Both the position numbers and the translations under genes were made by a program. A stretch of 64,000 bases of DNA from an uncultured Methanomicrobiaceae archaeon (GTDB lineage: Archaea; Halobacteriota; Methanomicrobia; Methanomicrobiales; Methanoculleaceae). The DNA lies in NCBI GenBank assembly GCA_963826525.1, contig CAWGXH010000004.1, positions 1,024,001-1,088,000 on the forward strand, in the 5' to 3' direction. The notes under the pieces were generated by a model. That model saw nothing but the letters and a program-made list of their open reading frames with translations. It ran no database searches and was not told the DNA's origin. Each line of letters opens with the position of its first letter. Positions within the stretch are counted from its first letter, which is position 1. This document shows, piece after piece, positions 5,472-44,195 of this stretch.

Positions 5472-5479
5472 GGGGGAGC

Positions 5480-25267: not shown

Positions 25268-28200
25268 GTGAAAGAGGTCACCAGCAGCTACGATGGGCCG
25301 ATGCTCGAAGCGTGGGCTCAGGAGTTCTGGGCGACACGCGATACCTATGCGAAAGTGCAGGAACTGCGGCGCACCGGCAGGCCGTTCTTCTTTGTCGACG
25401 GACCGCCGTATACGACCGGCCACATTCATCTCGGCACTGCCTGGAACAAGATCCTCAAAGATACCATCCTCCGGTACCACCGGATGTGCGGCAGGCAGGT
25501 GATCGAGCGGGCGGGCTACGATATGCACGGCCTTCCCATCGAGGTGAAGGTGGAGCACGAGCTCGGGTTCACATCCAAGAAGGATATCGAGGGATACGGG
25601 ATTGCGGCCTTTATCGAGCGCTGCCGGACGTTCGCCGAGACCCACAAAGACCTCATGAGCGAGCAGTTCAAACGGCTCGGTATCTGGCTCGACTTCGATG
25701 ACCCCTACCAGACGATAAAGGAGGACTATATCGAGGCCGCCTGGTGGACGCTGCAGCGGGCGGACGAGCGCGGCCTCCTCGAGCGCGGACACCGGGTCGT
25801 GAACTGGTGTCCCCGTTGCGAGACTGCGATCGCGGACTCGGAGGTGGAGTACTGGGACGAGACCGACCCGTCCATCTTCGTCAAGTTCCCGCTTGCAGGC
25901 CGCCAAAACGAGTACCTCGTCATCTGGACGACTACTCCGTGGACGCTTCCCGCAAACGTCGCGGTCGCGGTCGACACCGATTTCATCTACGCCCGGGTGC
26001 TCGCAAAGAAGGATCTCGGCGAAGAGATTCTCTGGATCGCCGAGGATCTGGTGGAGTCCGTCCTCAGGCTCGGCAGATACCGGGACTTCGAGGTGCTCGA
26101 ACGTAAGCCCGGCAGCGACCTTATCGGCACCGAGTACACCTCGCCGCTCGCCGACCAGGTGCCGCACCAGCGGGAGATCCGCCACCGCGTCGTCGCGGCG
26201 GATTTCGTCACGATGGAGAATACCGGTCTTGTCCATATCGCCCCGGGCCACGGGTGGGACGACTACCTCCTCGGCGTGAAAGAGGGGCTGCCCGCCTTCT
26301 GCCCGGTCGACGGCGGCGGCTGCTTTACGCCCGATGCCGGAGCGTTCGCCGATATGTACGTCCGGGATGCGAACGACGTCGTTATCGACGCGCTCGGCGA
26401 CTACCTCCTTGCCCGAAAGAAGATCGTCCACCGCTACGGACACTGCTGGCGGTGCAAGACGCCGATCATCTTCCGGGCGACGGAGCAGTGGTTCCTGAAG
26501 GCGACCGAGATCCGCGACAGAATGCTCGAGGAGATCGCGGGCGTCAGGTGGCACCCCGAGTGGGCCGGCAGCGCCCGGTTCCACGACTTCGTCAAAGAGT
26601 CGCGCGACTGGTGCATCTCCCGGCAGCGCTACTGGGGTATCCCGATCCCCATCTGGCAGTGCGAGGACTGCAAGGAATACACCGTGATCGGCACCATCGC
26701 CGAACTCGAGGAGCGTTCCGGAGCGACCATCCCCGACCCGCACCGCCCCTACGTCGACACCGTCACGCTCCCCTGCTCCTGCGGCGGCGTGATGCGCCGG
26801 GTCGAGGATATCTTCGATGTCTGGTTCGACTCGGCCGTGGCGTCGTGGGCGACGCTCGGGTTCCCCCGGAAGAAGGAGGCGTTCGAGAAGTACTGGCCTG
26901 CCGACTTCATCACCGAAGGGCAGGATCAGACCCGCGGCTGGTTCTACTCCCAGCTCGGGGCGAGCACCATCGCTTTCGATCGTTCCCCCTACAAGAGCGT
27001 CCTGATGCACGGGTTTGCCCTCGATGCCGAGGGACGGAAGATGAGCAAGAGCCTCGGCAACGTAGTGACGCCCGACGAAGTGGTGAACCAGCACGGCGTC
27101 GACGTGCTCCGGCTCTACATCCTCTCGGCGAGCGCCCCCTGGGACGACCTGAAGTTCAACTGGGATGGGGTGAAGACGGTGCACCGGGCGGTCAACATCC
27201 TCTGGAACGTCTACCGCTTCCCGCTGCCCTATATGATCCTCGACTCGTTCCGGCCCGAGGCCGGTCCCGAGGGTTGGGACGGATCGTTCGTGCGGGATCA
27301 TATCCGCGAGATGCCGGAGGAAGACCGCTGGATCATCTCCCGGGTAAACTCCCTCGCCCGGCAGATCGATGCCGACCTGGAGGAGTACCAGCTTCACCGC
27401 GTGACCCGTGGGCTGACCGGTTTCATCCTCGAGGATCTCTCCCGGTGGTACGTTCCAGCTGGTCCGGTCCCGGATGTGGCTCGAGGAGGACTCGCCCGCA
27501 AAGCGGTTCGCCTACGAGACGATCTACTACGTTATGCGCCGGCTGATCGAGCTTCTCGCCCCGTTCGCACCGCATATCACCGAAGAGATATTCCAGAACC
27601 TGAAGGTGGAAGGCGACGTCGAGAGCATCCATATGACGGACTGGGCTGCGCCAGCCGATCTCCTCATCGACACGCACCTCGAGGCTGCGATGGACGTGAT
27701 TCGTTCCTTCGACGATGCGGTCGCCAACGCCCGGCAGGCGGGCAAGCGGAAGCTCCGCTGGCCGGTGGAGGAGTGCGTCGTCGTGACGGAGAGCGACCTT
27801 GTCCGGGACGCCATCCTGATGTTACAGCCGCTCGCAAAAGCCCGGGCGAACAGCCGGAACGTTACGGTCGTTGAGGGTACCTGGGACCGGCTCAATTGGC
27901 AGGCAGAACCGGTGATGCGGGCGATAGGGCCAGAGTTCGGGAAAGAAGGGCCGAAGGTCAAGGCTTTGATCGAGCAGGCAGACGGGAACTCCCTTAAGAT
28001 CGCGATCGAGACGGAGGGGAAGGCGGAGCTCGGCGGGTATCCGATCACCGCCCGCCATGTCACCTTCACCGAGGCGATGCCGGAGGGTATCTTCCCCGCT
28101 CCCATGAAGGATGCGACGGTCTACGTGGACGTAACGCTTACACCCGGCCTCGAAGCCGAAGGGTACGCCCGCGAGGTCGTCCGGCGGCTGCAGGAGATGC

Positions 28201-28448
28201 GCCGGCAGCTCAACCTGAACGTGGACGACTGCATCGTCGCCGAGGTTACCGTCGACGACCCGCGGGTTGCCGGACTGATCCGGTCGGAGTGGACGGCCGG
28301 GATCAGCACCGAGGTCCGGGCGGAGGAACTCATCATCCATGCGCCGGGGGATGGGACGGGCCCCGAACGGCAGTGGGCGCTTTCCCACGACTGGGATGTT
28401 GAAGGCGTCCCGATGCGGATGGGAATCTCACGGGCCGCCGCAGAGTGA
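25268..28448 (+). CDS. ileS: isoleucyl-tRNA synthetase (frameshift near 27450)
   Basis: [50 protein letters not shown]. Confidence 0.97.
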
Positions 28449-29165
28449 TCTGACGAGCAGATCCCCTTCCGAAGTTGAAAAGAGCGGGGGGTCGTCGAGC
28501 ACGCTGACGACACTCCGGTCGGTCACGACCGCTTCTCCGGTCAGGGGATTGTACCCCTCTTTTTTGACCTTTGCCCGATAGACCAGTGTCCCGCGCCGCT
28601 GCCACGCCGGGGTCTCCGCGAGGTTCACCCCACGGGCATACATCATATCATGCATCGCCGGCGACTGCATCCCGGAGAGTCTCGCTGCCGCCGCACGGGA
28701 CGAGAGCCCCTCCTCGATGAGCGCGTGCTGACAGTAGGCGTTGATGTGGTTTCGCCAGGCCTCATTCTGGCGCCAGGTGAGGTACTCGACCGCAAACTCA
28801 GGGGATGCGGGGATCACCCGGGCGTCGAAGGCGAGGGGAGTTCTGATCCCGAGTTCTATCGCGAGACTGCTTGCAGCGAATGCTGCCGTAACCGAGTCGA
28901 GTTTCTCGACCCTCCCCGTGAACGGCAGTGTGGTGAAGAAGAGACTGATCTCGTCGGAGAAGGTATAGGCGAATGCGGGTTCAAGTCCACTCTCCGAGAG
29001 CAGCTGCCTGCAGACCATTGTCATGCTCTCGTGGAAACCCGGATCGAACGGTTTCGCGAGGCTAAGCTCGCGGGAGAGGCGGTGAAACGCCCGTCCGTCG
29101 AGTCTGATGAAGATCGGGGGAAATATTGTCAGGTTGGAGAAGATCTCCCTCTCGTGCATGGTCAT
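28428..29165 (-). CDS. thg1: tRNA(His) guanylyltransferase / Thg1-like 3'-5' polymerase
   Basis: IRLDGRAFH, YTFSDEISL, FDARVI, WRQNEAWRN, WQRRG. Confidence 0.95.
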   Translation of the reverse strand: MTMHEREIFSNLTIFPPIFIRLDGRAFHRLSRELSLAKPFDPGFHESMTMVCRQLLSESGLEPAFAYTFSDEISLFFTTLPFTGRVEKLDSVTAAFAASSLAIELGIRTPLAFDARVIPASPEFAVEYLTWRQNEAWRNHINAYCQHALIEEGLSSRAAAARLSGMQSPAMHDMMYARGVNLAETPAWQRRGTLVYRAKVKKEGYNPLTGEAVVTDRSVVSVLDDPPLFSTSEGDLLVRSLCGGP

Positions 29166-29211
29166 TGCAGCAGGGTGGCACGCCTTGGGCCGGCTTTACG
29201 AGAGAGCCTGT

Positions 29212-29475
29212 TTACTCCTCTTTCTTCTGCGATTTGAAGACGCCCGCGATGTGGCGGATCAGGACGACGTCCCCGATACTCTTGATGATGCGGAAGGGTA
29301 TCTGCAGCCCCTTATAGCCTTTGAGTTCGCCGATCTCGGGGTTTAAATTGCCCACTGCGAGCGAGTCTATCTTCTTTGCGTCCACATCGATCACGACATC
29401 ATCAACACTCCCGACGTATACGGCCTTGTCGGTATAGACATTCAGTCCGAACAGCTCTGTGATCTGGGTTCTCAT
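29212..29475 (-). CDS. PRC-barrel domain protein (CdpB-like)
   Basis: LFGLNVYTDKAVYVGSVDDVVID...IPFRIIKSIGDVVLI. Confidence 0.88.
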   Translation of the reverse strand: MRTQITELFGLNVYTDKAVYVGSVDDVVIDVDAKKIDSLAVGNLNPEIGELKGYKGLQIPFRIIKSIGDVVLIRHIAGVFKSQKKEE

Positions 29476-29526
29476 CGGTATCCTGTGAGGGTATAGAACT
29501 ATAAACGTAAAAGGATACTCCTTCTC

Positions 29527-30657
29527 ATGGAAGCCTCGCTACAGATAGGAAAGATTGCCGGGATTCCCGTCAAGTTGCACTGGAGTTTCCTTCTCGTGAT
29601 CCCCCTTTTTGCCTGGATCATCGGGAGCCAGATAGTCCTGACGACGGAACTCATCGCCAATCTCTTCAAAGTCACAATCGATATGACCTTGATCACCGCA
29701 GGGTGGAACCCCTACATCCTCGGGGCGATCGTGGCGCTCGGCCTCTTCTTCGGGGTATTCATTCACGAGATGGCGCACTCGCTCCTCGCCAAGTCAAAAG
29801 GGCTCAAGATCAACAGTATCACGCTCCTGATCCTCGGCGGCGTATCCTCGATGGAGGAGAACGTCCCCGATCCCAGGGTGGAACTGCCGATGGCGCTCGC
29901 AGGCCCGCTCACGAGCCTCGGTATCGGACTTATCTGCATCGCTCTCGTCTATATCTCCACTCTCATCCCCGACCCGGCCATCGCGGGCGTCCTTATCTTC
30001 AGCTTCGGATACCTCGGGCTCCTGAATGTTCTCCTCTTCGGGTTCAACCTGCTGCCTGCATTCCCGATGGATGGCGGCAGGGTGCTCCGCGCCTGGCTTG
30101 CGAAAAGGATGCCGCTCAACCGGGCAACGCGGATCGCTGCCGATGTTGGGAAGGCATTTGCCGTCGTCTTCGGGATCGTCGGGTTCCTCCTCTTCAATCC
30201 TATCCTGATCATCATCGCGTTCTTCATCTATATCGGGGCGAATCAGGAGGCGACGACGCTGCGCTATAACGTCCTTCTCCAGGACGTCTCCGTCGCCGAC
30301 GTCATGAGCAGCCCGGTCAGAACAGTCCCGCCGACGATGCCGGTGACCGAGGTGGTGCGGTTGATGTACGAGACCAAACATCTCGGGTTCCCGGTCGTCG
30401 AAAACGGTGCGCTCGTCGGCATCGTCGCACTCTCCGACGTTCACAAACTCTCGCCGCAGGACCGCGAGGCGATGCAGGTGAAGGATATTATGTCACGGAC
30501 TCCCGTCACGCTTTCCCCGAACGCCCCGCTCATGGATGCCCTGCGGATCATGTCGGTGAACGACATCGGCCGGATACCGGTGATCGCCGGCCGCGATCTC
30601 GTGGGGATCGTGACCCGCACGGACGTCGTCCGGGTGATGGAACTGAAAGAGGCTTAA
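29527..30657 (+). CDS. site-2 (M50) intramembrane metalloprotease with CBS pair
   Basis: HEMAH, FNLLPAFPMDGGR, two C-terminal CBS domains. Confidence 0.95.
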   Translation: MEASLQIGKIAGIPVKLHWSFLLVIPLFAWIIGSQIVLTTELIANLFKVTIDMTLITAGWNPYILGAIVALGLFFGVFIHEMAHSLLAKSKGLKINSITLLILGGVSSMEENVPDPRVELPMALAGPLTSLGIGLICIALVYISTLIPDPAIAGVLIFSFGYLGLLNVLLFGFNLLPAFPMDGGRVLRAWLAKRMPLNRATRIAADVGKAFAVVFGIVGFLLFNPILIIIAFFIYIGANQEATTLRYNVLLQDVSVADVMSSPVRTVPPTMPVTEVVRLMYETKHLGFPVVENGALVGIVALSDVHKLSPQDREAMQVKDIMSRTPVTLSPNAPLMDALRIMSVNDIGRIPVIAGRDLVGIVTRTDVVRVMELKEA

Positions 30658-32297
30658 AATACCAGAAGATCGTCGAGCGGCGTCGTTCCGGCGACGGCCC
30701 GGAACTCCTCCACATTTTTGAACGGCCGCTTTGCCGCTATCTGCGCCGCCCGCTTCTTTCCGATGCCCGGAATCCACGTAAGGGCACGTATCGGCAGGGT
30801 GTTGATCGCCACCGGAACGGGAAGGGCGGTCACGGAGCGCATCCCGTAGTCAACCACGGCCGCATCGAGCACGGTCTTTTCCGGGAGCTCCAGGGGGATG
30901 CCCGCGAGGATGGGGTACGACCCCATCTGGCGGCCGAACGACGGGTTCCCCGATGCCTCCACGATCAGTTCGCAAAGGACGGTGCCCACGGGGAAGACCC
31001 GCTGCAGCATCGGCTCGTCGAACTCCTTCCGTGTCCACTCCTTGAATGCCCGGAACTCGCGCTCGTGCTTCCCGAGGGTGTTCTCCTCGTACGCGCTCGT
31101 CCCCTCAAACGGCATCAGCTGCCTGATATTCACCCTGCGCACGAGGAGGCCTGCTTTGAGCACCCGCTCGAGGAACGCCCGGTCGGCCTCGAATGTCCGG
31201 GCAGTCTCTCCGGCAAGGCCGGTAACGAAGTTGAGGCCCGGCAGGAGTTCGGGGATGCCGTCCCGCCGCGTCCCGCCGACTTCGTTGACGATCTCGATCG
31301 CCCGGAAGACATCGTCCGGCATGGCCTTGAGGTTGTTTGCCGCGACCACCGCGGGATCGGCGGTCTCCATCCCGAACGCCGCGACGTCGCCCGGAGTGTG
31401 GCCGCGGACGATCGCCTCGAGCCCGGCCCGCGCCGCATCCTCATGATGGGCGATGGTCCCGGGGTTGATGTTGTCGATGTGCAGCGTCCGGAGTTCCGGA
31501 GCCCTCTCGCGGATGGCGGAGAAGAGTTCCTCCAGGAGTTCCGGGCGGGGTCTCGGAAACTCTTCGCCGCCCGTGCCGTAGGCGAGGAGGTCTGGCTGAC
31601 GGCCGAGACGGAAGTAGCGGGCACCGGCCGCGTAGAGTGCGGCAACTTCCTCCGCGATCGCCTCGATCGACCGGTACCGCGGCAGCCCGTAAAACGGCTC
31701 GGTGCAGAAGGAGCACCCGCCGGCAACGGCGCGGGAACACCCGACGGCCGTCTCGAGCTCGCACATGACGTACGGGAATGCGGGGTGCTCTGCAACGATG
31801 CCGCTCCCCGCGACGGTCCAGGGATCGGTCAGGGCGTAGTCTCCCGCACCCGCGGGCTCCCGGCCGGCGAGGTAGGCGTCGAGCGCGACGGCGGGGTTGC
31901 CGGAGAGCGTAACGGTAAAGCCGGAGATCGCCTGCCGGATCGCCTTTTTGCCGCCCTGCGGTGCGTAGCCGAAGGTGATGGGGCCGCCGATCGCCGTTGC
32001 GGGCTTTCGGAGCAGGGTGCCGAGCTGCTGGATCTCGGTGAGGGTCGCCGGCGTGCCGCCGATGTATGCGCCCGGAACCGTTAGCCCTGCGATCATGACG
32101 ACGAGCGAGGCCGCACCGAGGGAGGTGGTCAGGCCTGAGTCGGCACGGAGCGCATCGATGGTGACGTAGCGCGGCCGGTAGCCGTGTCCGATGAGAACGC
32201 CGGCGACCGTCCGTATGTAGGGGGAGATGTAGGGCGAGACACCGAGGCATGCAGGTTCATCGACGTAGCCGTCGATGATGACGGCGTCAGAGGTCAT
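30654..32297 (-). CDS. radical SAM protein with C-terminal helix-hairpin-helix (COG1031-like), function unknown
   Basis: IDGYVDEPACLGV start; CSRAVAGGCSFC (Cx7Cx2C); FRLGRQPD; C-terminal IPGIGKKRA HhH. Confidence 0.85.
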   Translation of the reverse strand: MTSDAVIIDGYVDEPACLGVSPYISPYIRTVAGVLIGHGYRPRYVTIDALRADSGLTTSLGAASLVVMIAGLTVPGAYIGGTPATLTEIQQLGTLLRKPATAIGGPITFGYAPQGGKKAIRQAISGFTVTLSGNPAVALDAYLAGREPAGAGDYALTDPWTVAGSGIVAEHPAFPYVMCELETAVGCSRAVAGGCSFCTEPFYGLPRYRSIEAIAEEVAALYAAGARYFRLGRQPDLLAYGTGGEEFPRPRPELLEELFSAIRERAPELRTLHIDNINPGTIAHHEDAARAGLEAIVRGHTPGDVAAFGMETADPAVVAANNLKAMPDDVFRAIEIVNEVGGTRRDGIPELLPGLNFVTGLAGETARTFEADRAFLERVLKAGLLVRRVNIRQLMPFEGTSAYEENTLGKHEREFRAFKEWTRKEFDEPMLQRVFPVGTVLCELIVEASGNPSFGRQMGSYPILAGIPLELPEKTVLDAAVVDYGMRSVTALPVPVAINTLPIRALTWIPGIGKKRAAQIAAKRPFKNVEEFRAVAGTTPLDDLLVF

Positions 32298-32907
32298 AGC
32301 CGATCAGGTGCAGGAGTTCGCGTGCCCAGGAGAGCTTGCCCCGCTTGACGGGATCGACCGATCGATCGTCGAGATTGAACCCGATGATCGTGATCGCTGC
32401 TGCACCGAGTTCGTCGGCGGCGTAGACCGCACGGTCACCGTCGGTGAAACCGCCGAAGTTGTGGACGTGTGCAAGCGGTGTTCCCTGCGTGGTGCGGACG
32501 AGCGGCCCGGGGAACCGGGGTGTCCAGTGCCGGAGCAGCGGGATGTTGTCGCCGTGGGCGTGGACGACCATCACCGTCCCGTCCCGGTTCATCTCGATGA
32601 AGCGGTCCGTGGCGCCGTCGAGGTCGGTGAAGACGGCGTCCGGCCGGATACCCCGCTCCGCCAGCACCTCGGCGGCGGCGTCCGCGGCAAAGATGCTCCC
32701 TTCGATCCGGTCGAGTTCGTCGGCAAGGCAGGGAGCGTTCCCGCAGACCGTCACCTTCTTTCCCGCAGCGAGCGACCGGAGGAGCGGCAGGTCGTCCTTG
32801 TCCGAGAGACCGGCAAGGAGTCGTGCGGCCTCCTCGTCCTCTTCCCGTTCAAAGCAGAAATAGTCAAGAATAGCGGTATAGTGCGGTTCCCAGTCTTCAA
32901 ACTTCAT
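32287..32907 (-). CDS. mptE: 6-hydroxymethyl-7,8-dihydropterin pyrophosphokinase
   Basis: WEPHYTAILDYF, AADAA, TDLDG, HAHGDN, NFGGFTDGDRA. Confidence 0.9.
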   Translation of the reverse strand: MKFEDWEPHYTAILDYFCFEREEDEEAARLLAGLSDKDDLPLLRSLAAGKKVTVCGNAPCLADELDRIEGSIFAADAAAEVLAERGIRPDAVFTDLDGATDRFIEMNRDGTVMVVHAHGDNIPLLRHWTPRFPGPLVRTTQGTPLAHVHNFGGFTDGDRAVYAADELGAAAITIIGFNLDDRSVDPVKRGKLSWARELLHLIGYDL

Positions 32908-34387
32908 CCTTGCCCTCGCCGTCCAGGCCGACCAGCGTCGTGAACCGCTTCAGAATCGGGTCGATGATGAGCGAGAGCAGTTCCTCTTTGTCCCGCACCA
33001 TCGTAAAATAACTGAGCGGAATGACGGATGCCGCCATCGTGGCGTGCCCTCCTGCCTCGCCGATCGCCCCGAAGGCCTCGGTCATGACGTTGCCGAGGTG
33101 GAGGCGGATGTCCTTGTTGCGTGCCGAGATGATGATGTTCTGATCCCCTATCCCGTAGACGAGCGCCGTGTTCACCCCTTCGAGCTGGATCAGAAGATCT
33201 GCCGCCTGCGGGAGGGCGTCACGGTTCCGCACGTAGCCGACGTTCGAGAAGAGGTAGCCGCTCTTGATCCTCCGGTTCCGGACAGCGGTTCCGAGGATAT
33301 CGAGTGTCTCCTGCGAGATGGACGGGGAGGTGATCTTGCTGAGGAGTTCCGAGTCGGTCAGGGGCAGGAGAAACGCGGCGTAGTTGAGGTCTTGCGGGGT
33401 GACGTTCCGCTTGAAGTCCCGGGTATCCGCCCTGATTCCGTAGAGCAGAGCAGTCGCGACGGTCTTGTTCACGGGGATGTCAAGTTCCATCAGGTACTGG
33501 GTCATGATGCTTGCCGTAGCCCCGACACCCGGCCTGATATCGATGAAGTCGGCGATGGCATTCGGGGTCTCGCCGTTTTTGTGGTGATCGATGATGACGT
33601 TGACCCGGGTATTCTTCGAGAGCTCGTTGTTGACGCCGGGGGCGGCCGAGTCCACGAGTGCCAGGTAGTTGCACTCTTCGAGGACCTGAGGGGTGAGCCG
33701 CTCGAGTTTGATCTCGAGGAGGTTGATAAAGGCGCGGTTCTCCTGGTGCCCGATATTGCCTTCGTAGAGGATGCGGCAGGTGAGTTTGCCGTGGCTCGCG
33801 TGGCGTGCGACCATCGAGAGCGCCATCGCGCTCGAGATAGCGTCGGGGTCGGGGTTCATGTGGGTGACGATCCCGAGCGTTCCTTCCCAGCCGGCGAGGA
33901 GGTCGTAGAGCCGCATCGCGAGGCGCGACGAGTGAAGTTTCCTGATATGGTGGATGGCGGTCTTTGCCACCACTTCCTGAGGGTAGAGGACGATATCCGC
34001 GCCTTCCTCCTGGAGCATATCGACACTGACCGGGTCGACTGCACGCGCGATCACATAGGTGGCGGGGTAACGGTTCTTGACGCTCCGGAGAGCAGTGAGA
34101 TTTGCGTCTTTATCATTGCTCAGAATAAAAGCGACTTCCGGCACCGGAAGTCCGTCGAGAAGGTGGGGATCACGGATATCCCGAACAAGTGCCTCGTATT
34201 TCTGGTCTCGCAGGTCTTCGACCCTCTTCTCGTCCCGGTCGACGATGATGAGATCTTCGTTCTCCTGAACCAGCTCTTCGGCGACGTTATAGCCCGTGCT
34301 TCCGCACCCGAGTATTATATACTTGATTCGCTCTTTCGATACGTTCTGAACCGCCTCAGGCATGTGTACAATGGTGTAACTTCTCAT
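32897..34387 (-). CDS. TrkA-N (RCK) domain plus DHH/DHHA1 phosphoesterase
   Basis: ILGCGSTG Rossmann motif; HMNPDPDAISS; IIDHH; GGHATMA. Confidence 0.9.
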   Translation of the reverse strand: MRSYTIVHMPEAVQNVSKERIKYIILGCGSTGYNVAEELVQENEDLIIVDRDEKRVEDLRDQKYEALVRDIRDPHLLDGLPVPEVAFILSNDKDANLTALRSVKNRYPATYVIARAVDPVSVDMLQEEGADIVLYPQEVVAKTAIHHIRKLHSSRLAMRLYDLLAGWEGTLGIVTHMNPDPDAISSAMALSMVARHASHGKLTCRILYEGNIGHQENRAFINLLEIKLERLTPQVLEECNYLALVDSAAPGVNNELSKNTRVNVIIDHHKNGETPNAIADFIDIRPGVGATASIMTQYLMELDIPVNKTVATALLYGIRADTRDFKRNVTPQDLNYAAFLLPLTDSELLSKITSPSISQETLDILGTAVRNRRIKSGYLFSNVGYVRNRDALPQAADLLIQLEGVNTALVYGIGDQNIIISARNKDIRLHLGNVMTEAFGAIGEAGGHATMAASVIPLSYFTMVRDKEELLSLIIDPILKRFTTLVGLDGEGKDEV

Positions 34388-34476
34388 CTTATTAATGGAT
34401 TCCCTGATGGGTTCTCCCCGGAATAATCCGGAAGGTTTATTTGCAATCCAGACCTATTTTGTTAGGTCAGATGAAA

Positions 34477-34550
34477 GGGCCTGTAAGCTCAGTCGGCAGA
34501 GCGACGGACTCTTAATCCGTAGGCCAGGGGTTCAAGTCCCTTCAGGCCCG
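34477..34550 (+). tRNA. tRNA-Lys (CTT)
   Basis: GGGCCTG/CAGGCCC acceptor stem; anticodon arm ACGGA-CT-CTT-AA-TCCGT; GGTTCAAGTCC T-arm; one extra A after the acceptor stem is probably an indel. Confidence 0.93.
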
Positions 34551-34861
34551 TTCCCTTTCTCATGCTGCCTCTGTTCTTTGTCACTCCGTTTCTCCGTGGT
34601 CACTATCGTACATCAATCGTTCCGGAACCGCTTCGAATTATCCTCGCTGCGCCTGTCCGGAGAGCGGTCGTGGAACCGACGGGCGTCCCGAAGATGCGTC
34701 ATGGGCGGTTGTTCCGTACTCTGCCCTGTAGTGTAGCCGTCGGGGTCAGGTGTATGCCCCTGGTATTTAAATTATGCCCCGGGGGCGATTTATCGAAGGA
34801 TACGCGGAGATCGCGAGGGCCGGGTTCTGCTGCCGGGCGGCAGGTGGCCGGCGGTTTTTCT

Positions 34862-35801
34862 TTAGAGAAATGAGGTCGCGTAGGTGTAGCCGTCTTTAAG
34901 CGGCTGCTGTTCCCGTCGATGAGTAAGAACATACTGGCCGCAGTTACTGCCGATCCTGTTCTCCTCGGTCTCTCCGATACTGACGATCACCCTCGTAGCC
35001 TGCCGACTGAAGCTCCTGCACGAGCGTGTACTCCGTCGCTCCCGGTCGGACGTACGAGGTAAGGTTGTTCCTGGTCGCCGCATAGGTCGGGTTGACGGGG
35101 GTGATCTTGATCGAGGAAGGTCTCGGGGGAGAAGTGCCGCAGCAGAATCTCCGGGTCTATCGGCGCTCCTTCTGCCAGGGCGAAGTTCAGGACGATCTTC
35201 CGGTCTCCCTTCCCGAAGAACGCCTCCCCGTAGCGTGCCATCCGGGAGAGGCTCCACGTCCTGATCGGCACGAGCGTTCGCCTGACCTGCTCGTCGGTGC
35301 TGTGGAGGGAGAACTGGAACTGGAACCTGCCGCGGTACAGCCGGTCTTTTCATCATCGAGCAGGCGGTCGAAGAACCGGTCGGTTCCGTGCGGAGCGACG
35401 GTCGAGAGCGACGGTGCAAGGCCCGGTGCCCGGTACCGGTTCGGGAGTTCCTCGAGAACGTCGAGGACGGCAGGGTTGAAGGCAGGCTCTCCCATGCGGG
35501 CGAACTGTATCTTGAACTTCTTCGCAGGGACGGCGCCGTCCGGGTACCGCCTCCTGACGAGATGGTCTATCTGGAAGAGTATCTCTTCCGCCGAGAGTCT
35601 GCCGTGATACTCGTTCCCTGCATCGCAGAAAGAACAGCCGACGGGGCATCCGTGCAGCGTCGAGACGATCAACACCCATTTCTCCTCGCGCGAGAGCGGG
35701 GGCTGCACCGATTCGACGCACTCGATCATTCTCTCCGGTGCAGTCTCGATGATGGAGACTGTTGCGATATCGTCGTTTCCCGTTCTGGCAAGCACTCTCA
35801 T
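34862..35801 (-). CDS. RlmN/Cfr-like radical SAM protein, short atypical form (several frameshifts)
   Basis: GCPVGCSFCDAG, ARMGEP, reconstructed FSLHSTDEQVRRTLVPI and KITPVNPT, C-terminal IGSNCGQ. Confidence 0.85.
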
Positions 35802-36706
35802 TCGTCACCCTCTCGCAGTCTTCGATCGAGTTCCATCGCGGCTCTCACTCCCGCTCCGGCAGCAATGGCGGTCTGCCGGAAGATGCCGGCCGCTGCGTCT
35901 CCGACGATCTGCAGCCGGCAACTCGCGGAGAGTTCACTCTGATCATATTTCAGCCGCTCACTCAAAAAGTCGAGGGCCGGCTCCCTGCCGATGGCGGTGA
36001 GCAGGTACCCGACGGTGAGAGTGCGGGCTCGCCTCTCCGGTCCTGCAACGGAGGGCGAGCCCGTGCGTGATCGGACGCGACGGCCTCGATCCGGGTCTCG
36101 CCGAGATAGGTGATGCGGGCGGATCTCTCCGCCCGCTCCCGGAGCAGCGGGAGAGACCGCGCCCGGGCTGCTCCGGTTGATGATCGTAACATCGTTCTCC
36201 CGGGAGAGCCGGAGGGCGTAATCGAAAGCGGCATCCCCGCCGCCGAGGACGGCGATGCTGGCTCCCCCGCACGTCGAGGAGCGGGAGGATGCCGGAGACG
36301 ATGCGGGGGCGTGCCTCCGCCGGGATGCCGGGCAGGTCCCATGACCCGCGGCCGTGTCCCCGTCGCGACGATGACGGCGGATGCCCGGCAGGTCTCCTCG
36401 TCAGTCTCGATAAGGAACGTCCCTGCCGTATAATCGAGCAGAAGCACCTCCTTACGAACGAGCCGGATACCGGAGCCGGTCAAGATGGTGTGCCAGCCGA
36501 TTGGCGAGAGCCTGGCCGGAAATCGCCGTCGGGAAACCCGGGGTAGTTCTCGACGAGGTTCGCTTCGCGGACAAGGCCTCCCGGCATCCCTTTCTCGAAG
36601 ACGAGCGGATCATGGCCGGAGCGCTGCAGACTGGACGGCGGCCGCTATCCCGGCAGGGCCCTGCGCCGATGACGGCGACGGTCTCAGTCTCCTCTGCCGG
36701 CACCAT
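35798..36706 (-). CDS. NAD(P)/FAD-dependent oxidoreductase, TrxB-like (several frameshifts)
   Basis: Reconstructed AVIGAGPAG, VENYPGFP, VIVATG, VLGGGDAAFDYA, IVGD...RQTAIAAGAG; stop overlaps the radical SAM ATG. Confidence 0.8.
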
Positions 36707-37353
36707 CGAGCCACTCCAGTAAGTTCGGCGGTGAGCACCGGGACGGCGCATCCGTGCGAAAGCGTGCAGAGGGATGCCCGGTGGAACTCTCCGGTATACG
36801 TAGCCGTCCCGTCGACCGGGAAGAAGACTGAAAATCCCCGTACGAACGCGGAACGTGCCGTCGTTTCGCAGCAGAGATGGGTCGCGACGCCCGTGACCAC
36901 CACCTGCGTGACCCCTGCACGCCGGAGCATGGCTCTCGAGATCCGTCCGATAGAATGCATCGTACTGGGATTTCGTAACGATCGGGAACGACGGGTCGTA
37001 GAGATCGGGAGTAAGGTCTGCCGCCCCGGTCTCTTCCGTTATCAGGTCCCGCCACCAGATGGCCATACTGCCGGCGTCTCCGGGTGTGTTCCGGTGCCTT
37101 GTGAAGAGTACCGGGGCGCCCGCCCGGACGAACCCGTCGATCAGGGTGCGGATCTTCGGGACGATCGCCCGGCTGCCCGGGATGAACGCGTGCGACCGCT
37201 CGTCGAGGAAGGAGCGCTGCATATCCACGACGAGCAGCGCCGCCTGCTCCGGGACGAACCGGACGGGGTGGCGGCGGCGAAGATCCCGGACGTGCCGGAG
37301 CATCTCGGCGGCAACGGCGTCGATCGTTCGGGTGTAAGGTATTCCTCCTTCAT
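36684..37353 (-). CDS. cysteine hydrolase (isochorismatase family; frameshifts)
   Basis: ALLVVDMQ, TKSQYDAF, GVATHLCCETTARSAF (D-K-C triad). Confidence 0.85.
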
Positions 37354-37365
37354 CAGGGCTACTGC

Positions 37366-38253
37366 CTACTTCCCGATTTTCACCAGCATCTCTTCGAGCG
37401 ACGGGTAGCGCGACTCGATCCGCTCGATCACGGCACCGTCCGCCGAGAGGGTGGTTGTGGTCATGTTCAGCTCCTCGATCGTCCGTGCCGTGGCGAGGTA
37501 GTGACCGTCGGCCTCGGTATACGCGAGTTCCGTCGCAAAGGCGGACGCATCTGGTATGCGGAAGAATATCTGGTAGGTGAGCGAGCCGAACATCTCCCGG
37601 AGTTCGTCCATGCTGCCCTGGGCGACGGTCTTCCCCCGCCTGAGGATCATCACCGAATCGCAGACCTCCTCGACCTGGTAGAGATTGTGGCCCGAGAAGA
37701 TGATCGTCTTGCCCTGCGAGCGGAGACTCTTGATATAGTCGATGACGAACCGCGAGGTCATGGGATCGAGCCCGGAGGTCGGTTCGTCGTAGATCAAAAG
37801 CGACGGATCGTGGATGAGCGACCGGGCTATCGCGACTTTGCGCTTCATCCCCTTCGAGAGCTCCCCGAGTTTCTTCCCCTCCGCCTCCAGGGAGAGCGAG
37901 CCTAAGAGTTCGTCCCTTCGAGCGCGGATGGTCTTCGCATCGAGTCCGTAAATCTCGCCGAAGAACGAGAGGTACGCATCGACGGTCATCGTCTCGTAGA
38001 GGCGCGACTCCTCGGGGAGGTAGCCGAGACGCCGTTTCAGGTCGAGGGGCTGGCTGATAACGTCGATATCGTCGACGGTAAGTGTTCCGGAGGTCGGTGT
38101 GATCAGTCCTGCCAGAATCTTGAGGAGCGTGGTCTTTCCTGCGCCATTGTGACCGATGACGCCGAAGATATTCGACTCCTCGAGGTCGAAGCCGACGCCG
38201 TCGAGGGCGGGGAAGTCGTTGTAATACTTGACAAGTGTCCGGGCTCTGATCAT
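37366..38253 (-). CDS. ABC transporter ATP-binding protein
   Basis: GHNGAGKTT, LSKGMKRK, LIYDEPTSGLD. Confidence 0.95.
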   Translation of the reverse strand: MIRARTLVKYYNDFPALDGVGFDLEESNIFGVIGHNGAGKTTLLKILAGLITPTSGTLTVDDIDVISQPLDLKRRLGYLPEESRLYETMTVDAYLSFFGEIYGLDAKTIRARRDELLGSLSLEAEGKKLGELSKGMKRKVAIARSLIHDPSLLIYDEPTSGLDPMTSRFVIDYIKSLRSQGKTIIFSGHNLYQVEEVCDSVMILRRGKTVAQGSMDELREMFGSLTYQIFFRIPDASAFATELAYTEADGHYLATARTIEELNMTTTTLSADGAVIERIESRYPSLEEMLVKIGK

Positions 38254-38333
38254 CGTAACACCCCTTTTTACCAAATGCCTAATATACGTTATTGTACACA
38301 GACATCATTCCTCCGGGGCGGTGCGGGATATTT

Positions 38334-40139
38334 ATGGGTTTGGTTACCTCTGTCTGGACGATCACGCGATGGGAGATGAGGAAGTCGATGGCTTCCATGG
38401 GCAGGAACGTCCTGCCCCTGGCGCTCGGTCTCCTGATTCTGCTCGTTCTGGTGACCGGATTTGCCGCACAGAGTGGGATTCATCTCCAGGACGGCATGTA
38501 CCTGCTCGGTGTCGACGACCCCACCATCGCCCGCATCTTCGCCGGCGACGAGCGTTTTTCTGTCTACGAGAGTGATCCTCTGGCCCTCTGGCAGAACCGG
38601 TTCTCCTACGACGTTCTGGTGGTGGGCGGCGAGGTCTACGCCGCCGATACCGGCAAAGGCCGTTCCGCACTCAAGGCGCTCGAACGGGACTACGGCACTT
38701 ACGTCTCTCGCGTGGCAGGGGCAGAGCCCGACCTCTTCGCCGCCTACCCGCTCTGGATAGAACTCGAGTACGTCAGGAGCGAGATGGACTTCGTCGCGAC
38801 GGAGAGCGGGCAGCAGGTGGGAGCGCCGACTGATATCTCCTCGCCGCCCAAACCGAGCGGCCCCGTCGCTGCGATGACGCCTCCCCCTGCCGGAATCGGG
38901 GTCTCCGCCGACGACCTGCGGGCGCATCTCGTGACGGACGCTTCCGAGAGCCCCATCTCCCGCTATACCGACGTCCTCTCGACGGATACCGGTATGGAGT
39001 CGTTCAAGACCCCCTCGCAGCTCTCGCCGCCGCTCCCCTTCGACTCGATCATCCTCATCTTCGTCTTCATCTTCCCGCTCTACTTCACCTCCCAGTTCTT
39101 CATGATGAGCATCATGAACGAGCGGATCGGCCGCGTGGGAGAAGCGCTTCTCTCCGCGCCCGTCAGGCCCGCCGCGATCCTGCTCGGAAAAGGCCTGCCC
39201 TACTTCGCGATCATGCTGCTGATAGCGGGCATCATCACCCTGGTGAACGGTGCGTCGCTTCTGATCCTGCTCCCGCTCGTTCCGGTGATCCTCTTCTTCA
39301 TGGCGAACGCCCTCATCATCGGCATGACGGCAAGGAGCTTTAAGGAACTCTCCTTCCTCTCCATCTTCTTCTCGACCCTGGTCACCTCATACCTCTTCTT
39401 CCCGACGGTCTTTGCCAATGTCCACGTCGTGAGCATCATCTCCCCGCTCACCCTGGTCGTCCTCGAGCTCCAGGGGGACGGGTTTACGCTCATGGAGTAC
39501 GTCTACTCGACGTCGCTCTTCTTTGCGACGAGTGCCGTCCTCTTCTATGCGGGGGTGGCGAACTTCACCGAAGAGCGGCTCTTTTCGGAAAAACCGCTCC
39601 TGCCACGGCTGATGGAGTTTATCGGGAGCGGGATCTCGCACCACCGCCCCCTGCTCTCGCTCTTCGGCCTTGCGGCCTTCTCGGTCCCGTTCGTCTTCAT
39701 GGTGCAGATGATGTGCCTCGTGCTCTTCTTCAACGTCCCGATGCCGCTCTCGCTCGTCCTCCTCATTGGAGCGTCGGCGCTCATCGAGGAGTTCGCGAAG
39801 TCCGTCGGACTCTTTGCGCTTCTCCGGAGCAGGCCGAGTTTCCTCACCGTCCGGAACATGCTCGCGGGCTCGTTCCTCATCGCGCTCGGGTTCCTCATCG
39901 GTGAGAAGGTGCTGCTGCTCGCGACGCTCTCCCAGATCGCAGAATCAGTCTTCGGCGAGGTCCTCTTCCTCTCGCTCCAGGTGCTCTGGATGCCGCTCAT
40001 GCTCCACTTCGTCGGCGTGCTGATCGTCGCGATCTTCTTAAAGGTCGGTGGAAGCCGGGGCTGGGCTCCCGGCCTCCTGACCGCGACGGTCGTCCACGCT
40101 CTCTACAATCTCTACTTCATCTCGGGAGGTCTCCTATGA
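38334..40139 (+). CDS. ABC-2 type permease fused to a PrsW-like intramembrane protease domain
   Basis: Permease motif NERIGRVGEALLSAP; C-terminal IEEFAK, GFLIGEK, LHF, VHALYN. Confidence 0.8.
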   Translation: MGLVTSVWTITRWEMRKSMASMGRNVLPLALGLLILLVLVTGFAAQSGIHLQDGMYLLGVDDPTIARIFAGDERFSVYESDPLALWQNRFSYDVLVVGGEVYAADTGKGRSALKALERDYGTYVSRVAGAEPDLFAAYPLWIELEYVRSEMDFVATESGQQVGAPTDISSPPKPSGPVAAMTPPPAGIGVSADDLRAHLVTDASESPISRYTDVLSTDTGMESFKTPSQLSPPLPFDSIILIFVFIFPLYFTSQFFMMSIMNERIGRVGEALLSAPVRPAAILLGKGLPYFAIMLLIAGIITLVNGASLLILLPLVPVILFFMANALIIGMTARSFKELSFLSIFFSTLVTSYLFFPTVFANVHVVSIISPLTLVVLELQGDGFTLMEYVYSTSLFFATSAVLFYAGVANFTEERLFSEKPLLPRLMEFIGSGISHHRPLLSLFGLAAFSVPFVFMVQMMCLVLFFNVPMPLSLVLLIGASALIEEFAKSVGLFALLRSRPSFLTVRNMLAGSFLIALGFLIGEKVLLLATLSQIAESVFGEVLFLSLQVLWMPLMLHFVGVLIVAIFLKVGGSRGWAPGLLTATVVHALYNLYFISGGLL

Positions 40140-41219
40140 ACGGACGGAATATCGGAATTATCGCTAAAAAGGAGTTTTCAGGACTCTATACGGAGAAGAC
40201 GATCATATTTGCCATCCTCCTGCAGCTCTTCATCGCCATGTTCTCGTCGTTCCTGCTCGTCGGGCTCACCGCCATGTACGATCCCGAGGCGATGGCGGGA
40301 TACTCCACGACCCGGTATGCGGTCGGCTATGCGGGGAACGACTCGCCGCTCGTCGCGGAGTTTGCAAAGCACGACGATCTTCTCCTCTACCCTATCGATC
40401 TTTCCGAGGGTGTTGCCGCCCTCAAGGAGCGCCGAGCTCTCGGCCGTCGTCTACGTCCCGGATACCCCGCCGGACGCGGACGACCCGATCAAGGTCACGC
40501 TCTATCTCCTGCAGAACGACCTGCAGTCGAGCATCATCAACGTCAAAATAAAGGATCTCCTCCTCGGCTACGAGGCGGAGCTCCGCGAGATCCGCTCTGA
40601 CCGGCTTGAGTCCTTCCCGCTCGGGCTGAACTTTCCCGAGGGGATAACGGGCGCGGACTTCTTTGAGTTCGTCTACGGCCTCCTGATCCCGCTGCTCGTC
40701 TTCATGCCGGCGATCATCTCCGCAGCGCTGATCATCGACCTCATCACGGAGGAGTACCAGCGCCAGACACTCGAGACGCTTCTTGCGACGCCCGTCACCT
40801 TCACGGAGATGATCTGGGGGAAGATCGTCGCCTGCGAGGTCCTGATCCCGGTGCAGGCGGGTATCTGGCTCCTCCTCCTCACGGTCAACGGGATAGCGAT
40901 CGAAAACGCCCTCCCGATCCTGCTCCACGTTTCGGTCGGCGGCCTGCTGCTCATCCTCCTCGGAACGCTCGTCGCCCTCCACTACCGGGAGCGGACCAGT
41001 GCGCAGTTCATCTTCTCGACGGCGGTTGTGGTCGTCGTCCTCTTCGTCATGGCGATGCCCTATAACCCCTTGAACCTCATCGTCCGGCTCTCGGTGAACA
41101 CCATCGGCTACGAGCACTGGGTGATGCTCGGTATCACGCTCCTGGCGGCGATCGCCCTTGCCTGGATAACAACCGCATATGCCCGGCGGGTTGGGGACGC
41201 CCGGTCTGCCGGAGCCTGA
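40136..41219 (+). CDS. ABC-2 type permease (frameshift near 40430)
   Basis: IAKKEF start; ITEEYQRQTLETLLATP; GKIVA; multiple TM helices. Confidence 0.85.
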
Positions 41220-41405
41220 ACCTCATTTCATAATCTTTATCATACTCCTCTTCTCCGCTCCCGGCACTTTTCTCCGGCGGCAGCGCTCCCCGTTAGGCTT
41301 TAATTCGCCAGCGATTCCGCAAAACCGCCTCCATGCTTACGCCTCCTCGGTATCTCTCTCGTGGAAAAGTATATCTGATGGATGGCGCTATGAAGCGCAG
41401 ACCTC

Positions 41406-42085
41406 ATGCCCCCGCGACGATACTTCAACACGTTCTGTGCGGTCTGCGGCGAACCCTACCGCTCCTCAAGCCCTGATGAGGCCGGCGGGGTCGGTTCGCG
41501 CGACCTCGACACCCGCCCGGCGGAGCCCCTCCGCTCTACGATCTATTCCTGGGTGCAGCGCTGCCCCTCCTGCGGTTACGCCTCACCCGATATCGGGCGG
41601 CAGGTTCCGGGTGCGAAGGAGTCGGTCGGGCTCCCGCGGTACCGGGAGCAGCTCGACGACCGGACGTATCCGAAACTCGCGAACACCTTCCTCTGCTGGT
41701 CGCTGATCCAGGAGGATACGGGTTCGCCGGCGAAGGCCGCCTGGGCCTGCATCCATGCCGCCTGGGTCTGCGACGATCAGGGAAACGATGTTGCGGCACG
41801 GCTCTGCAGGAAACGTGCCGCCGCCCTGATGAAGCGGGCACGCGATGTGGGTGGGCGCCTTGCAGCACAGGAGGGCGGCGACGATGCGATCCTGGTCGAC
41901 CTCCTGCGGCGTGCCGGTCGGCTCCGCGAGGCCCGCACCGTTGCGGAGGACGCACTGAAGAACGGGCTTCCGAACCTCTCATCGCCGATGTTCTGCAGTA
42001 CCAGCGGCGCCTGATCGAGCGTTCCGACCGCACCCGTCACACCATCGACGAAGTGCGGCGGCTGCGGGGGCTCGCCCCCCGGTAA
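41406..42085 (+). CDS. DUF2225-like zinc-ribbon plus helical-repeat protein (frameshift near 41970)
   Basis: CAVCG and CPSCGYA pairs, DLDTRP, AAWVCDD, DLLRRAG. Confidence 0.7.
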
Positions 42086-42136
42086 CGGGACGCCGGATGC
42101 TCACCTTTTGTATACCATGACCCGCTGATATCTATC

Positions 42137-43448
42137 ATGCATATCGCGATCGTCTCACCCGACCTCTACACCTACGGCGCCATGCTGATCGGCGGCGTTC
42201 TGCGGGCTGCCGGGCACGACGTCTCCATCAGCAGAGAGACGAGGCTCCCGCCCGCCGACGTCCTCCTGCTCAGCCTCTACTCGACGCAGCACCTCCGCAG
42301 CCCCGCGATCCGCACCCTCGTCCGGGAGCAGCGGGCCCGCGGCGGTGTCGTGTACGTCGGCGGCCCGGTCTCGGCGTACCCGGAGATGGTGCTCGGGGAG
42401 CTCGAGCCCGATGCGGTCGTGGTCGGCGAGGGTGAGGAGACGGTGCTCCGCCTCGTCGATGCCGGTCCCTCTGCCGATCTTCCCGGGATAGCCTACCGGG
42501 ACGGTGACGGGGTGAGGGTGACCGCCCTGGCGGCGCCTGCCTCGCTCGAACGCCCCCTCCCCCTCATTCCGGCCGATATCGGCGGCCAGAGCATCAGGGG
42601 GGCGACCGCCTATATCGAGACGCACCGGGGCTGCATCGGGGGCTGCACCTTCTGCCAGGTCCCCCGTTTCTTCGGGCGGACGGTCCGGAGCCGGAGTATC
42701 GACGCGATCATCGAGGAAGTGACGGCGTTCAAGGAGCGGGGAGCAAAACGCCTCTCCATCAGCGGGGGGACGGGCTCCCTCTACGGCTCCCGGGACGGCG
42801 GTATGAACCCCGATGCCTTCATCGAGCTCCTCCGCCGGATGGCGGAGGTGATGGGGCCGCAGAATATCTCGTCGCCCGACATCCGGGTGGACTGCATCAC
42901 GGACGAGGTCCTCGAGGCGATCCGCCGCTACACCATCGGCTGGGTCTTCTTCGGGCTCGAGTCGGGGAGCGACCGCGTGCTCAAGCTGATGGGAAAAGGG
43001 GCGAAGGTCCGGCAGGTGGAGGATGCGGTTGACCGCATGCCGCCGGCACGGGCTGAAGGTGGCAGGGAGTTTCATCGTCGGCTACCCCGGCGAGACGGAG
43101 AAGGACTACGAAAAGACGAAAGACCTCGTCGCGTCGCTCTGCCTTGACGATATCTTCGTGAGCAGCGCCGAACCCATCCCGTCGACACCGCTCGCCGAGG
43201 TGGTCTTACGGACACCCCGCGAGGAGAACCCGGCGTTCATCTCGCATACCGGGGACTACCGGTCGCTGAACCTGACCGAGAGCGAGGCGCGCTGCTTCGA
43301 CCTGATGATGCACGCGGATATGTTCCGCCCCCAGATGCGGCTTGTCACGGACGAGGTTTTCACTGTCTACCTGACCGAGGCGCGGACGCAGGGTGCGGAT
43401 ATCCGGGCAGCCACCGATCTCCTCTTCCGCTACTACGGGCGGAAGTAG
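42137..43448 (+). CDS. B12-binding radical SAM protein, probable methyl-coenzyme M reductase glutamine C-methyltransferase (MJ0865 family; frameshift near 43035)
   Basis: YTYGAMLIGG B12-binding N-terminus, VGGP, ETHRGCIGGCTFC, GLESGS, SFIVGYPGET; family assignment is from recall of motifs. Confidence 0.75.
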
Positions 43449-43452
43449 GGCG

Positions 43453-44063
43453 TCACTCCTCTTTTCGGCAGAGCACCACCCGCGCCGGCGATCCGTCGAG
43501 CCCCGTCGAGCGGGAGCGGGAGGGCGATAAGCTCGTATTCGCCCTCCGGGACGCCCGAGAGGTCGAGCATCTCGATGATGAAACAGGAGTTTCCGAGGAG
43601 CTCTCTATGCACCGAACCGTCGCAGCGGAGCGCCTCGATCGACGGGCCGTCGATCCCGACGCAGAGAAGCCGCTTCCCGGACGAGGAGCCGTGCGGCCTC
43701 GATCCCGAGGTGCGGGAAGTCGGGGTCGAAGCGCTCCGCTGCCGAGAACGAGGTCTTTATGAGGAGGCGCCGGATGCCGCCGATCTCCCCGGCGAGGCGG
43801 TCTGCCGGTATCTCGCCCTCGATATCGCCGAGGTCGACCACCCGGCAGGGGCCGATGAGGTGATCGAGCGGTATCTGGTCGACGGTCATCCCGGTCTTCT
43901 GGTAGTGGATCGGCGCATCGATATGCGTCCCCGCGTGGGTGGAGACGAGCACGTCGGCGATGAGGTAGAGCTCCCGCTCTTCCCGCCGAAACTCCGTCCT
44001 CGTCACGCCGGGGATCGCGAGCATCTCGGGTGAGATCGGCCGGGTCACGTCGATGATCTGCAT
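43453..44063 (-). CDS. cyclase family (kynurenine formamidase-like) protein (frameshifted)
   Basis: STHAGTHIDAPIH motif; C-terminal GLDGSPARVV. Confidence 0.85.
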
Positions 44064-44195
44064 GAGGATTTCTATCGTTCCGGGAGGTTATCGGTCTGCC
44101 TCTTTGCAGTGGAGTAAACCGCGGCCGTGTGCGGTTTCCGGTATCGAACCGTTTAGATAATCTCCGGTGCTGGAATATCACGTTTCTGCAGAGTT

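Follow-up and report, generated by a model that had tools for sequence, protein, structure and literature searches.

A conserved cassette of a flavoprotein, an RlmN/Cfr-like radical SAM enzyme and, usually, an amidohydrolase in a methanogen lineage

A three-gene cassette carried by an uncultured archaeon of the Methanomicrobiaceae is described here from a stretch of 64,000 nucleotides of its genome (GenBank assembly GCA_963826525.1, contig CAWGXH010000004.1, positions 1,024,001 to 1,088,000), hereafter called the window, to which all coordinates refer. The genome itself is designated G000, and the relatives used for comparison are G001, G002, G004, G005, G013, and G014. The cassette encodes a cysteine amidohydrolase of the isochorismatase family, a flavoprotein with the thioredoxin reductase fold, and a radical S-adenosylmethionine (SAM) enzyme that resembles the RNA methylases RlmN and Cfr. 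The trio is a real conserved unit, of which the flavoprotein-radical SAM pair is the core and the hydrolase a frequent but dispensable third member, and its radical SAM enzyme is distinct from the housekeeping RlmN. We tentatively favor a reading of the cassette as a mobile three-enzyme module in which a flavoprotein-aided methyl synthase acts on a free metabolite, to which we assign slightly less than an even chance; the methyl transfer, the role of the flavin, and the class of substrate are points that we infer rather than observe.

All three genes lie on the minus strand. The hydrolase gene occupies positions 37353-36684 (ATG 37353-37351, TGA 36686-36684) and encodes approximately 221 residues after frame correction. 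It is followed by the gene of the FAD- and NAD(P)H-type flavoprotein, which lacks a CxxC motif (36706-35798; ATG 36706-36704, TGA 35800-35798), and by that of the N-terminally short, one-cysteine radical SAM enzyme of about 310-314 residues (35801-34862; ATG 35801-35799, TAA 34864-34862). A preliminary description of this DNA had reported three overlapping minus-strand genes at this place, which the start and stop codons bear out: the flavoprotein and hydrolase genes overlap by 23 nucleotides, given the chosen flavoprotein ATG, and the flavoprotein and radical SAM genes by 4 nucleotides (ATGA). Its three family assignments hold as well, with matches to PF00857, TIGR01292, and TIGR00048 on the pieces found in the window and on the intact orthologues of G002, a congeneric genome. 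In the window copy, PF00857 matches the hydrolase as two frame pieces, and the RlmN/Cfr models match the radical SAM enzyme weakly.

The conservation of the cassette was assessed in 80 loci, on contigs taken from one genome per species and found through relatives of the radical SAM enzyme. They belong to the Chloroflexota, Acidobacteriota, WOR-3, Zixibacteria, Krumholzibacteriota, Bacteroidota, Ignavibacteria, Thermotogota, Cloacimonadota, Myxococcota, Patescibacteria, Thermoplasmatota, and other phyla. That the three genes occur together in other genomes, a point on which the preliminary description had let its reading depend, is clear from these loci. In 77 of them the radical SAM gene has a flavoprotein gene upstream of it, and each of the other three offers no more than 340 bp of upstream DNA; in L066 the two genes are 2.8 kb apart. 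The hydrolase gene is found in 60 of the 80 loci, or 60 of the 73 that can be judged, 7 having too little upstream DNA, and in one locus it lies downstream. Members of the trio are also fused in nature. Five flavoprotein-radical SAM fusions (553-646 residues, one of them partial) and four hydrolase-radical SAM fusions from Elusimicrobiota (552-561 residues) were identified, and the Atlas holds a cluster of 58 proteins of the latter kind. No fourth conserved gene emerged when the 743 open reading frames (ORFs) of the 80 loci were clustered, as only the trio families occurred in more than five loci. A library of 5.8 billion proteins contains 5,570 relatives of the G002 radical SAM protein at E <= 1e-5, of which the best 120 listed are 58-90% identical. 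The earlier statement that no characterized system has this composition is in keeping with our literature search, which turned up no paper on the cassette.

RlmN and Cfr are class A radical SAM methyl synthases of A2503 in 23S rRNA and A37 in tRNA. To our knowledge, RNA is the only described target of methyl synthases of this type, and two cysteines are required in RlmN and Cfr alike. The cassette enzyme has their fold in common (TIGR00048 and TIGR04432; PDB 3rfa, 5hr6/5hr7, 6fz6, and 9p0p). Its AlphaFold2 model has a pLDDT of 91.6, and the structure matches in the PDB are RlmN/Cfr proteins at all of ranks 1-11 (TMq 0.56-0.67), the next family following at E 5e-5. The likeness extends to the CX3CX2C cluster motif, an MGEP..N motif, and the cysteine of a C-terminal CGQ. 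However, the enzyme is only 21-23% identical to canonical RlmN, and its G002 orthologue reaches 46.6 bits on TIGR00048 and 33.2 bits on TIGR04432, where the cut-offs are 290 and 550 bits, respectively. The cassette enzymes of five bacterial genomes similarly score 36-51 bits on TIGR00048. In four of these five genomes, a true RlmN scoring 372-406 bits coexists with the cassette enzyme; in the fifth, a Gracilibacteria genome of 1 Mb, the cassette enzyme is present and canonical RlmN was not found. A distant match in G441 turned out to be a canonical RlmN.

The alignment of 63 cassette enzymes reveals how the active site differs. The only conserved cysteines are those of CX3CX2C (C52, C56, and C59) and C286, in 62 of the 63 sequences. 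C286 aligns with the cysteine of the C-terminal 'ACGQ' of three canonical RlmN proteins, themselves taken from cassette-bearing genomes, and we take its position to be that of E. coli RlmN C355, the methyl carrier. In contrast, the cysteine found in RlmN seven residues before the cluster motif, presumably equivalent to the resolving cysteine C118 of the E. coli enzyme, is replaced by Ile or Val in the cassette family. Approximately 80 alignment columns at the N terminus are filled by canonical RlmN only, and the cassette enzyme thus lacks the N-terminal domain of RlmN. When net charge was used as a proxy for RNA binding, no clear difference was seen between the cassette enzyme and RlmN cores. 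The low TIGR00048 scores, the true RlmN alongside in four of five genomes, and the absence of both the N-terminal domain and the resolving cysteine together set the cassette enzyme apart from the housekeeping RlmN, with which, as the preliminary description had anticipated, it does not group. Its consistent pairing with a flavoprotein, joined in most loci by an amidohydrolase, is a further difference from RlmN and Cfr.

Over its whole length, the flavoprotein aligns with thioredoxin reductase (PDB 2q7v, E 1e-31), with which it shares a two-dinucleotide fold, and more weakly with the ferredoxin-NADP reductase of thioredoxin reductase type (PDB 3ab1, E 8e-11). The glycine and other residues of its dinucleotide motifs (G12, G14, and P15; G151, G153, and D158) are invariant in 37 sequences. 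The G002 protein scores 83.5 bits on PF07992 and 147 bits on TIGR01292, below the family cut-off of 343 for thioredoxin reductase. It also differs from that enzyme in lacking CxxC and in that some genomes encode it as a fusion with the radical SAM protein. The CATC of 2q7v is replaced by GIIP, and no conserved cysteine column or pair was found among 64 sequences, where no column had cysteine in more than 40. Complex prediction for the flavoprotein and the radical SAM enzyme in two runs (alignments A3 and A2) yielded a score of 0.00, which carries no weight either way. In eukaryotic TYW1, a radical SAM enzyme carries a fused flavodoxin-like domain, which sets a precedent for such an attachment of flavin (PMC8941971). 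The radical SAM family of TYW1, its flavin fold (an FMN flavodoxin), and its reaction differ from those of the cassette.

The hydrolase of G002 is a clear member of PF00857 (134.9 bits; gathering cut-off 27). It has the D-K-C triad in common with the cysteine hydrolases of the isochorismatase family, which include triuret/biuret hydrolase-type enzymes (PDB 6xix and 6xjm), RutB, nicotinamidase, and N-carbamoylsarcosine amidase: D44 is found in 45 of 49 sequences and K128 and C161 in all 49, and the window copy retains all three residues. Among proteins of solved structure, the hydrolase comes closest to small-amide cysteine hydrolases. It differs from these enzymes by its fusion to the radical SAM enzyme in Elusimicrobiota, and it remains below every NCBIfam equivalog cut-off, the best score being that on PRK11440 (55.8 bits vs. 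195); other scores are those on BiuH (53.3 vs. 370), RutB (44.9 vs. 378), and nicotinamidase (29.2 vs. 174). Membership of the nicotinamidase, RutB, BiuH, or YcaC equivalogs is therefore not indicated, as the cut-offs are not reached.

In the mechanism that we propose, the radical SAM enzyme would load the methyl group of SAM on its single conserved C-terminal cysteine, C286. A second SAM would be cleaved at the [4Fe-4S] cluster, and a Cys-S-CH2 radical would join an sp2 carbon of the substrate, as in RlmN. The flavoprotein, reduced by NAD(P)H, would feed electrons both for reduction of the cluster and for release of the methylated product; it is proposed as an outside reductant for the latter step because the second, resolving cysteine is absent. 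The cysteine amidohydrolase might act on this substrate as well and remove an amide or ureido nitrogen, either ahead of the methylation or following it. In place of rRNA, the substrate would most likely be a free heteroaromatic metabolite, such as an amide that resembles a nucleobase or nicotinamide. This preference is based on an amidohydrolase that can be fused and is catalytically intact, on the N-terminal domain of RlmN having been lost, and on the accessory distribution of the cassette described below. The idea of a self-contained module outside rRNA housekeeping, already put forward in the preliminary description, is supported by the conservation of the trio and by the features that set its radical SAM enzyme apart from RlmN. 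A more specific form of the proposal is that the cassette enzyme represents the first branch of the RlmN/Cfr clade to act on a free metabolite and that it is 'flavin-resolved', the reduced FAD of the partner replacing the second cysteine and delivering the cluster electron, with the amidohydrolase tying the system to salvage or tailoring of heteroaromatic amides. In this specific form we regard the proposal as rather doubtful.

Several observations weigh against a methyl synthase acting on a free metabolite. The fold and a single cysteine are the grounds for assuming methyl transfer, and an enzyme devoid of the resolving cysteine might perform chemistry of another kind. The hydrolase gene is missing in 13 of the 73 judgeable loci. 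Finally, the library family closest to the G002 radical SAM protein, closer than RlmN, is the phage family phrog_24834 (102 bits), whose function is unknown, and 31 phage records hold relatives with 24-34% identity. In the five phage loci inspected, from phages of Bacteroides, Moorella, Pectobacterium, and Stenotrophomonas and one crAss-like virus, the radical SAM genes (L129 4833-5840, L130 4839-5663, L131 3824-4699, L132 3884-4843, and L133 3839-4627) stand alone, with neither flavoprotein nor hydrolase in any of the five. They are found among replication and recombination genes, in Stenotrophomonas phage ANB28 inside a tRNA gene cluster, and the relative in the Moorella phage adjoins a thymidylate synthase gene. 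Because of these settings, a nucleic acid or a nucleotide may yet be the substrate. Members of phrog_24834, for example those of Bacteroides phage Versailles and Moorella phage MTATph1, have a short N terminus as in the cassette enzyme, and the Versailles protein has the C-terminal cysteine and lacks the resolving one, like the cassette enzyme; by contrast, some members end before the C-terminal cysteine, and the ANB28 protein has a cysteine at the resolving position.

The phage settings bear on the alternative that the radical SAM enzyme is a C-methylase of tRNA or rRNA with a new target, the flavoprotein being its dedicated reductase and the hydrolase a loose passenger. The RlmN/Cfr fold and the methyl-carrier cysteine would suit such an enzyme, as would the short phage relatives in replication regions and within a tRNA gene cluster, the loci that do without the hydrolase, and the one Gracilibacteria genome searched that has the cassette enzyme and no canonical RlmN. 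However, the N-terminal domain of RlmN is missing, and the cassette is rare and accessory in the phylum. Moreover, the hydrolase-radical SAM fusions of Elusimicrobiota and a hydrolase whose triad Lys and Cys are intact in all 49 sequences fit an RNA substrate poorly. An RNA target is thus unlikely in our estimation.

A second alternative is that the enzyme does not methylate at all and uses a 5'-deoxyadenosyl radical to cleave or reduce a heterocycle; C286 would then donate the hydrogen atom, and the thiyl radical would be reduced again by the flavoprotein. The absence of the resolving cysteine of class A methyl synthases in all 63 sequences is consistent with such chemistry. A structural neighbor in the Atlas (TM 0.85), represented by 65 proteins of approximately 817 residues in which QueT, PNP_UDP_1, and radical SAM domains are fused, may link the fold to salvage of queuosine precursors. 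In that pathway, the queuine lyase QueL is described as a radical enzyme by which queuine is turned back into preQ1 (PMC11130926, PMC11570991), which offers a comparison for the reaction envisaged. On the other hand, no sequence link to the QueT-fused cluster was found, QueT and the cassette enzyme lie on different contigs in the three genomes that hold both, and no cassette-like gene occurs within 1.5 kb of QueT in seven loci. The C-terminal CGQ motif is, in addition, shared specifically with RlmN. We consider a non-methylating enzyme improbable, and a methyl synthase aided by its flavoprotein remains the reading that we prefer.

The cassette is accessory in this lineage. It resides on a segment of 2,529 bp (34837-37365) that contains all three genes and is present in G000, G002, and G004. 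G001, the closest relative, lacks exactly this segment: in blastn comparisons, window positions 26000-34836 correspond to L103 1123-9956 and positions 37366-44100 to L103 9958-16708, so that the flanks meet at L103 9956/9958, with DNA identity of about 90% on both sides. In G013 and G014, which belong to another genus of the family, approximately 400 bp separate the neighboring tRNA-Lys and ABC transporter genes. The trio lies at the same site in G002 and G004. In G005 it is found at another genomic site, between a long ORF and five ORFs that, read by eye, are presumably tryptophan-synthesis genes. In total, the radical SAM gene was detected in 4 of 41 relatives, G000 included, and, in a sample of 401 genomes of the phylum, in 2 (E <= 1e-40). 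Within the family, G001 and 20 of the 24 other genomes lack the cassette. In a quick tree of 61 sequences with a poorly resolved backbone, the two Methanomicrobiaceae rows pair (SH-aLRT 93) and fall among bacterial rows, apart from those of Thermoplasmatota. As part of the explanation that we find best, and with a likelihood that we would put close to but not quite at an even chance, the cassette may be a horizontally mobile module that crosses between bacteria and archaea, and the fact that it carries its own reductase would fit such transfers.

In the window, each of the three genes is split, and none forms a single open frame. DNA alignment with G002 revealed 16 frameshifting indels in the cassette, namely 15 insertion events (14 of one base and one of two bases) and one deletion of one base; no indels of another kind were found inside the cassette genes. 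The insertion sites are 36934, 36720, 36662, 36630, 36525, 36473, 36347, 36261, 36167, 36065, 36015, 35344/3, 35113, and 34992. The hydrolase gene has one-base insertions at 36934 and, near its end, at 36720, and contains the deletion, close to 37329. The flavoprotein gene has nine one-base insertions, from 36662 to 36015, and the radical SAM gene an insertion of two bases at 35343-4 and single ones at 35113 and 34992. How far the encoded proteins are preserved was examined by projecting the window bases on the G002 codons through the DNA alignment, with residues considered conserved when present in at least 90% of family members. The window copy keeps 131 of 132 conserved residues (19/19 in the hydrolase, 25/25 in the flavoprotein, and 87/88 in the radical SAM enzyme), the sole altered one adjoining the two-base insertion, and in this projection none of the three genes has an internal stop. 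The ratios of nonsynonymous to synonymous substitution rates (dN/dS) relative to G002 are 0.22 for the hydrolase, 0.39 for the flavoprotein, and 0.10 for the radical SAM enzyme, and 0.08-0.22 for six flanking genes; the cassette genes have thus been under purifying selection.

Frameshifts of this type extend beyond the cassette. Over 363 kb aligned between G000 and G001, there are 198 isolated indels of lengths other than multiples of three, 140 of which are insertions in G000 as against 58, and 29 of the isolated indels fall inside the window (1-64000). For instance, a one-base insertion at 40434 splits an ABC-2 permease gene (40136-41219) for which G002 has one ORF of 360 codons. The G000 assembly is 87.6% complete and consists of 16 contigs. 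Because nearly all conserved residues are kept, internal stops are lacking, dN/dS is low, and indels occur throughout the assembly, the 16 frameshifts are most likely consensus errors of an error-prone assembly, and the genes intact in the genome. A public sequencing run favors the same reading: in a 2.7-kb contig of run X2, from a relative about 91% identical, single bases are missing at, or a few bases from, six of the indel sites and 13 bases away from a seventh. No source reads of window 33500-38500 were found among the public runs, in which at most 9% of the sampled words matched; the three runs compared consist of contigs of relatives. Short contigs of run X1 with 100% identity cover the cassette flanks only, and the X1 gap over the cassette carries no weight. 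One X2 contig (85% likeness, side 30) joins 34551 to 37370, which fits the cassette-less relatives and is too weak to count.

Two facts speak against consensus errors and could indicate that the three genes are true pseudogenes in G000, the cassette being lost there as it was from the sister genome. The first is the density of indels in the cassette, about ten times the assembly background (15 insertions in 2.5 kb, compared with a maximum of 5 per 2.5-kb bin), for which we see no explanation other than an assumed low read depth across a strain-variable segment. The second is that G001, at about 90% nucleotide identity, has lost the cassette exactly, as might be expected if selection were relaxed or decay very recent in G000. 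However, all but one of the 16 indels are insertions, which is also the direction of the bias across the assembly, and decay that collects 16 indels ought also to alter conserved residues, which is not what the projected proteins show. The dN/dS values of the cassette also resemble those of the flanking genes. Pseudogenes are thus a rather improbable explanation, and assembly error is the one that we retain. A practical consequence is that, in an assembly with approximately one frameshifting indel per 2 kb, broken genes of G000 should not be called pseudogenes without reads.

Upstream of the cassette lies an intact gene for an ABC transporter ATPase (38274-37366, minus strand; PF00005, 103.6 bits), whose TAG stop (37368-37366) is separated from the ATG of the hydrolase gene by 12 nucleotides, a measurement that corrects the 13 bp given previously. 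This gene also flanks the cassette in G002 and G004 and does not in G005; it is likely co-transcribed with the cassette in the window. Downstream, the cassette converges, as had been noted, on a tRNA-Lys(CTT) gene identified by ARAGORN on the opposite strand (34477-34550, plus strand), with 311 nucleotides between it and the end of the radical SAM gene. The convergence is probably coincidental, since the trio of G005 lies elsewhere, in a 13-kb locus where no tRNA was found. The tRNA-Lys is present at the same site in cassette-less relatives as well (L103 and L104). Its constant neighbor is a gene for a 496-residue protein with TrkA-N, DHH, and DHHA1 phosphoesterase domains (32897-34387, minus strand), 97% identical in G001 and 82-85% across the family. 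Farther along, translational coupling links an MptE-like pterin diphosphokinase gene (PF01973) with the gene of a 547-residue radical SAM protein with a C-terminal helix-hairpin-helix (30654-32907, minus strand); the pair is kept in G002 and G004 and may be part of methanopterin synthesis.

Of the 340 neighbor ORFs that lie within 3 kb of the cassette in other genomes, 200 were scanned with Pfam. In 25 loci the scan reached out to 3 kb (120 ORFs) and in the other loci to 400 bp (80 ORFs); the remaining 140 ORFs come from beyond 400 bp in L032-L087. Three loci of LCP-89 type (L059, L070, and L072; positions of about 4300-7830) have the flavoprotein-radical SAM pair, without the hydrolase, between a pyrK-like gene and pyrD, which encode an iron-sulfur flavoprotein and dihydroorotate dehydrogenase, respectively. 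Pieces of MttB-family and methionine synthase genes are found near the cassette in four loci of Krumholzibacteriota type, and an AMP-binding ligase gene in three Ignavibacteria loci. 2-Methyladenine, as the lower ligand of cobamides, was considered as a product and dropped as unsupported, no cobamide genes being found among the scanned ORFs; E. coli makes such a cobamide when given cobinamide (PMC6759758). The scanned neighbors bear likewise on a role in pterin metabolism. It is highly improbable that the cassette fills a gap in the synthesis of folate, methanopterin, or p-aminobenzoate: the MptE-like gene does lie two genes away in the window, G002, and G004, FolP is a convergent neighbor in L039, and a protein of the Haem_oxygenas_2/TENA family is encoded directly upstream in L017, but this single FolP is the only folate-synthesis family among the ORFs scanned, and methanogens need methanopterin, so that a cassette absent from G001 and most other genomes of the family cannot be an essential step there.

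If the cassette is a metabolite-directed methyl synthase with its partners, it would constitute a portable, NAD(P)H-driven unit for C-methylation of a heteroaromatic amide of purine-like, pyrimidine-like, or nicotinamide-like type. As the module brings its own reductase, its reconstitution should be easy and the question directly testable. A family that ranges from bacteria of candidate phyla to methanogens would then extend the chemistry of RlmN and Cfr and would hint at an unrecognized metabolite or modification in anaerobes.

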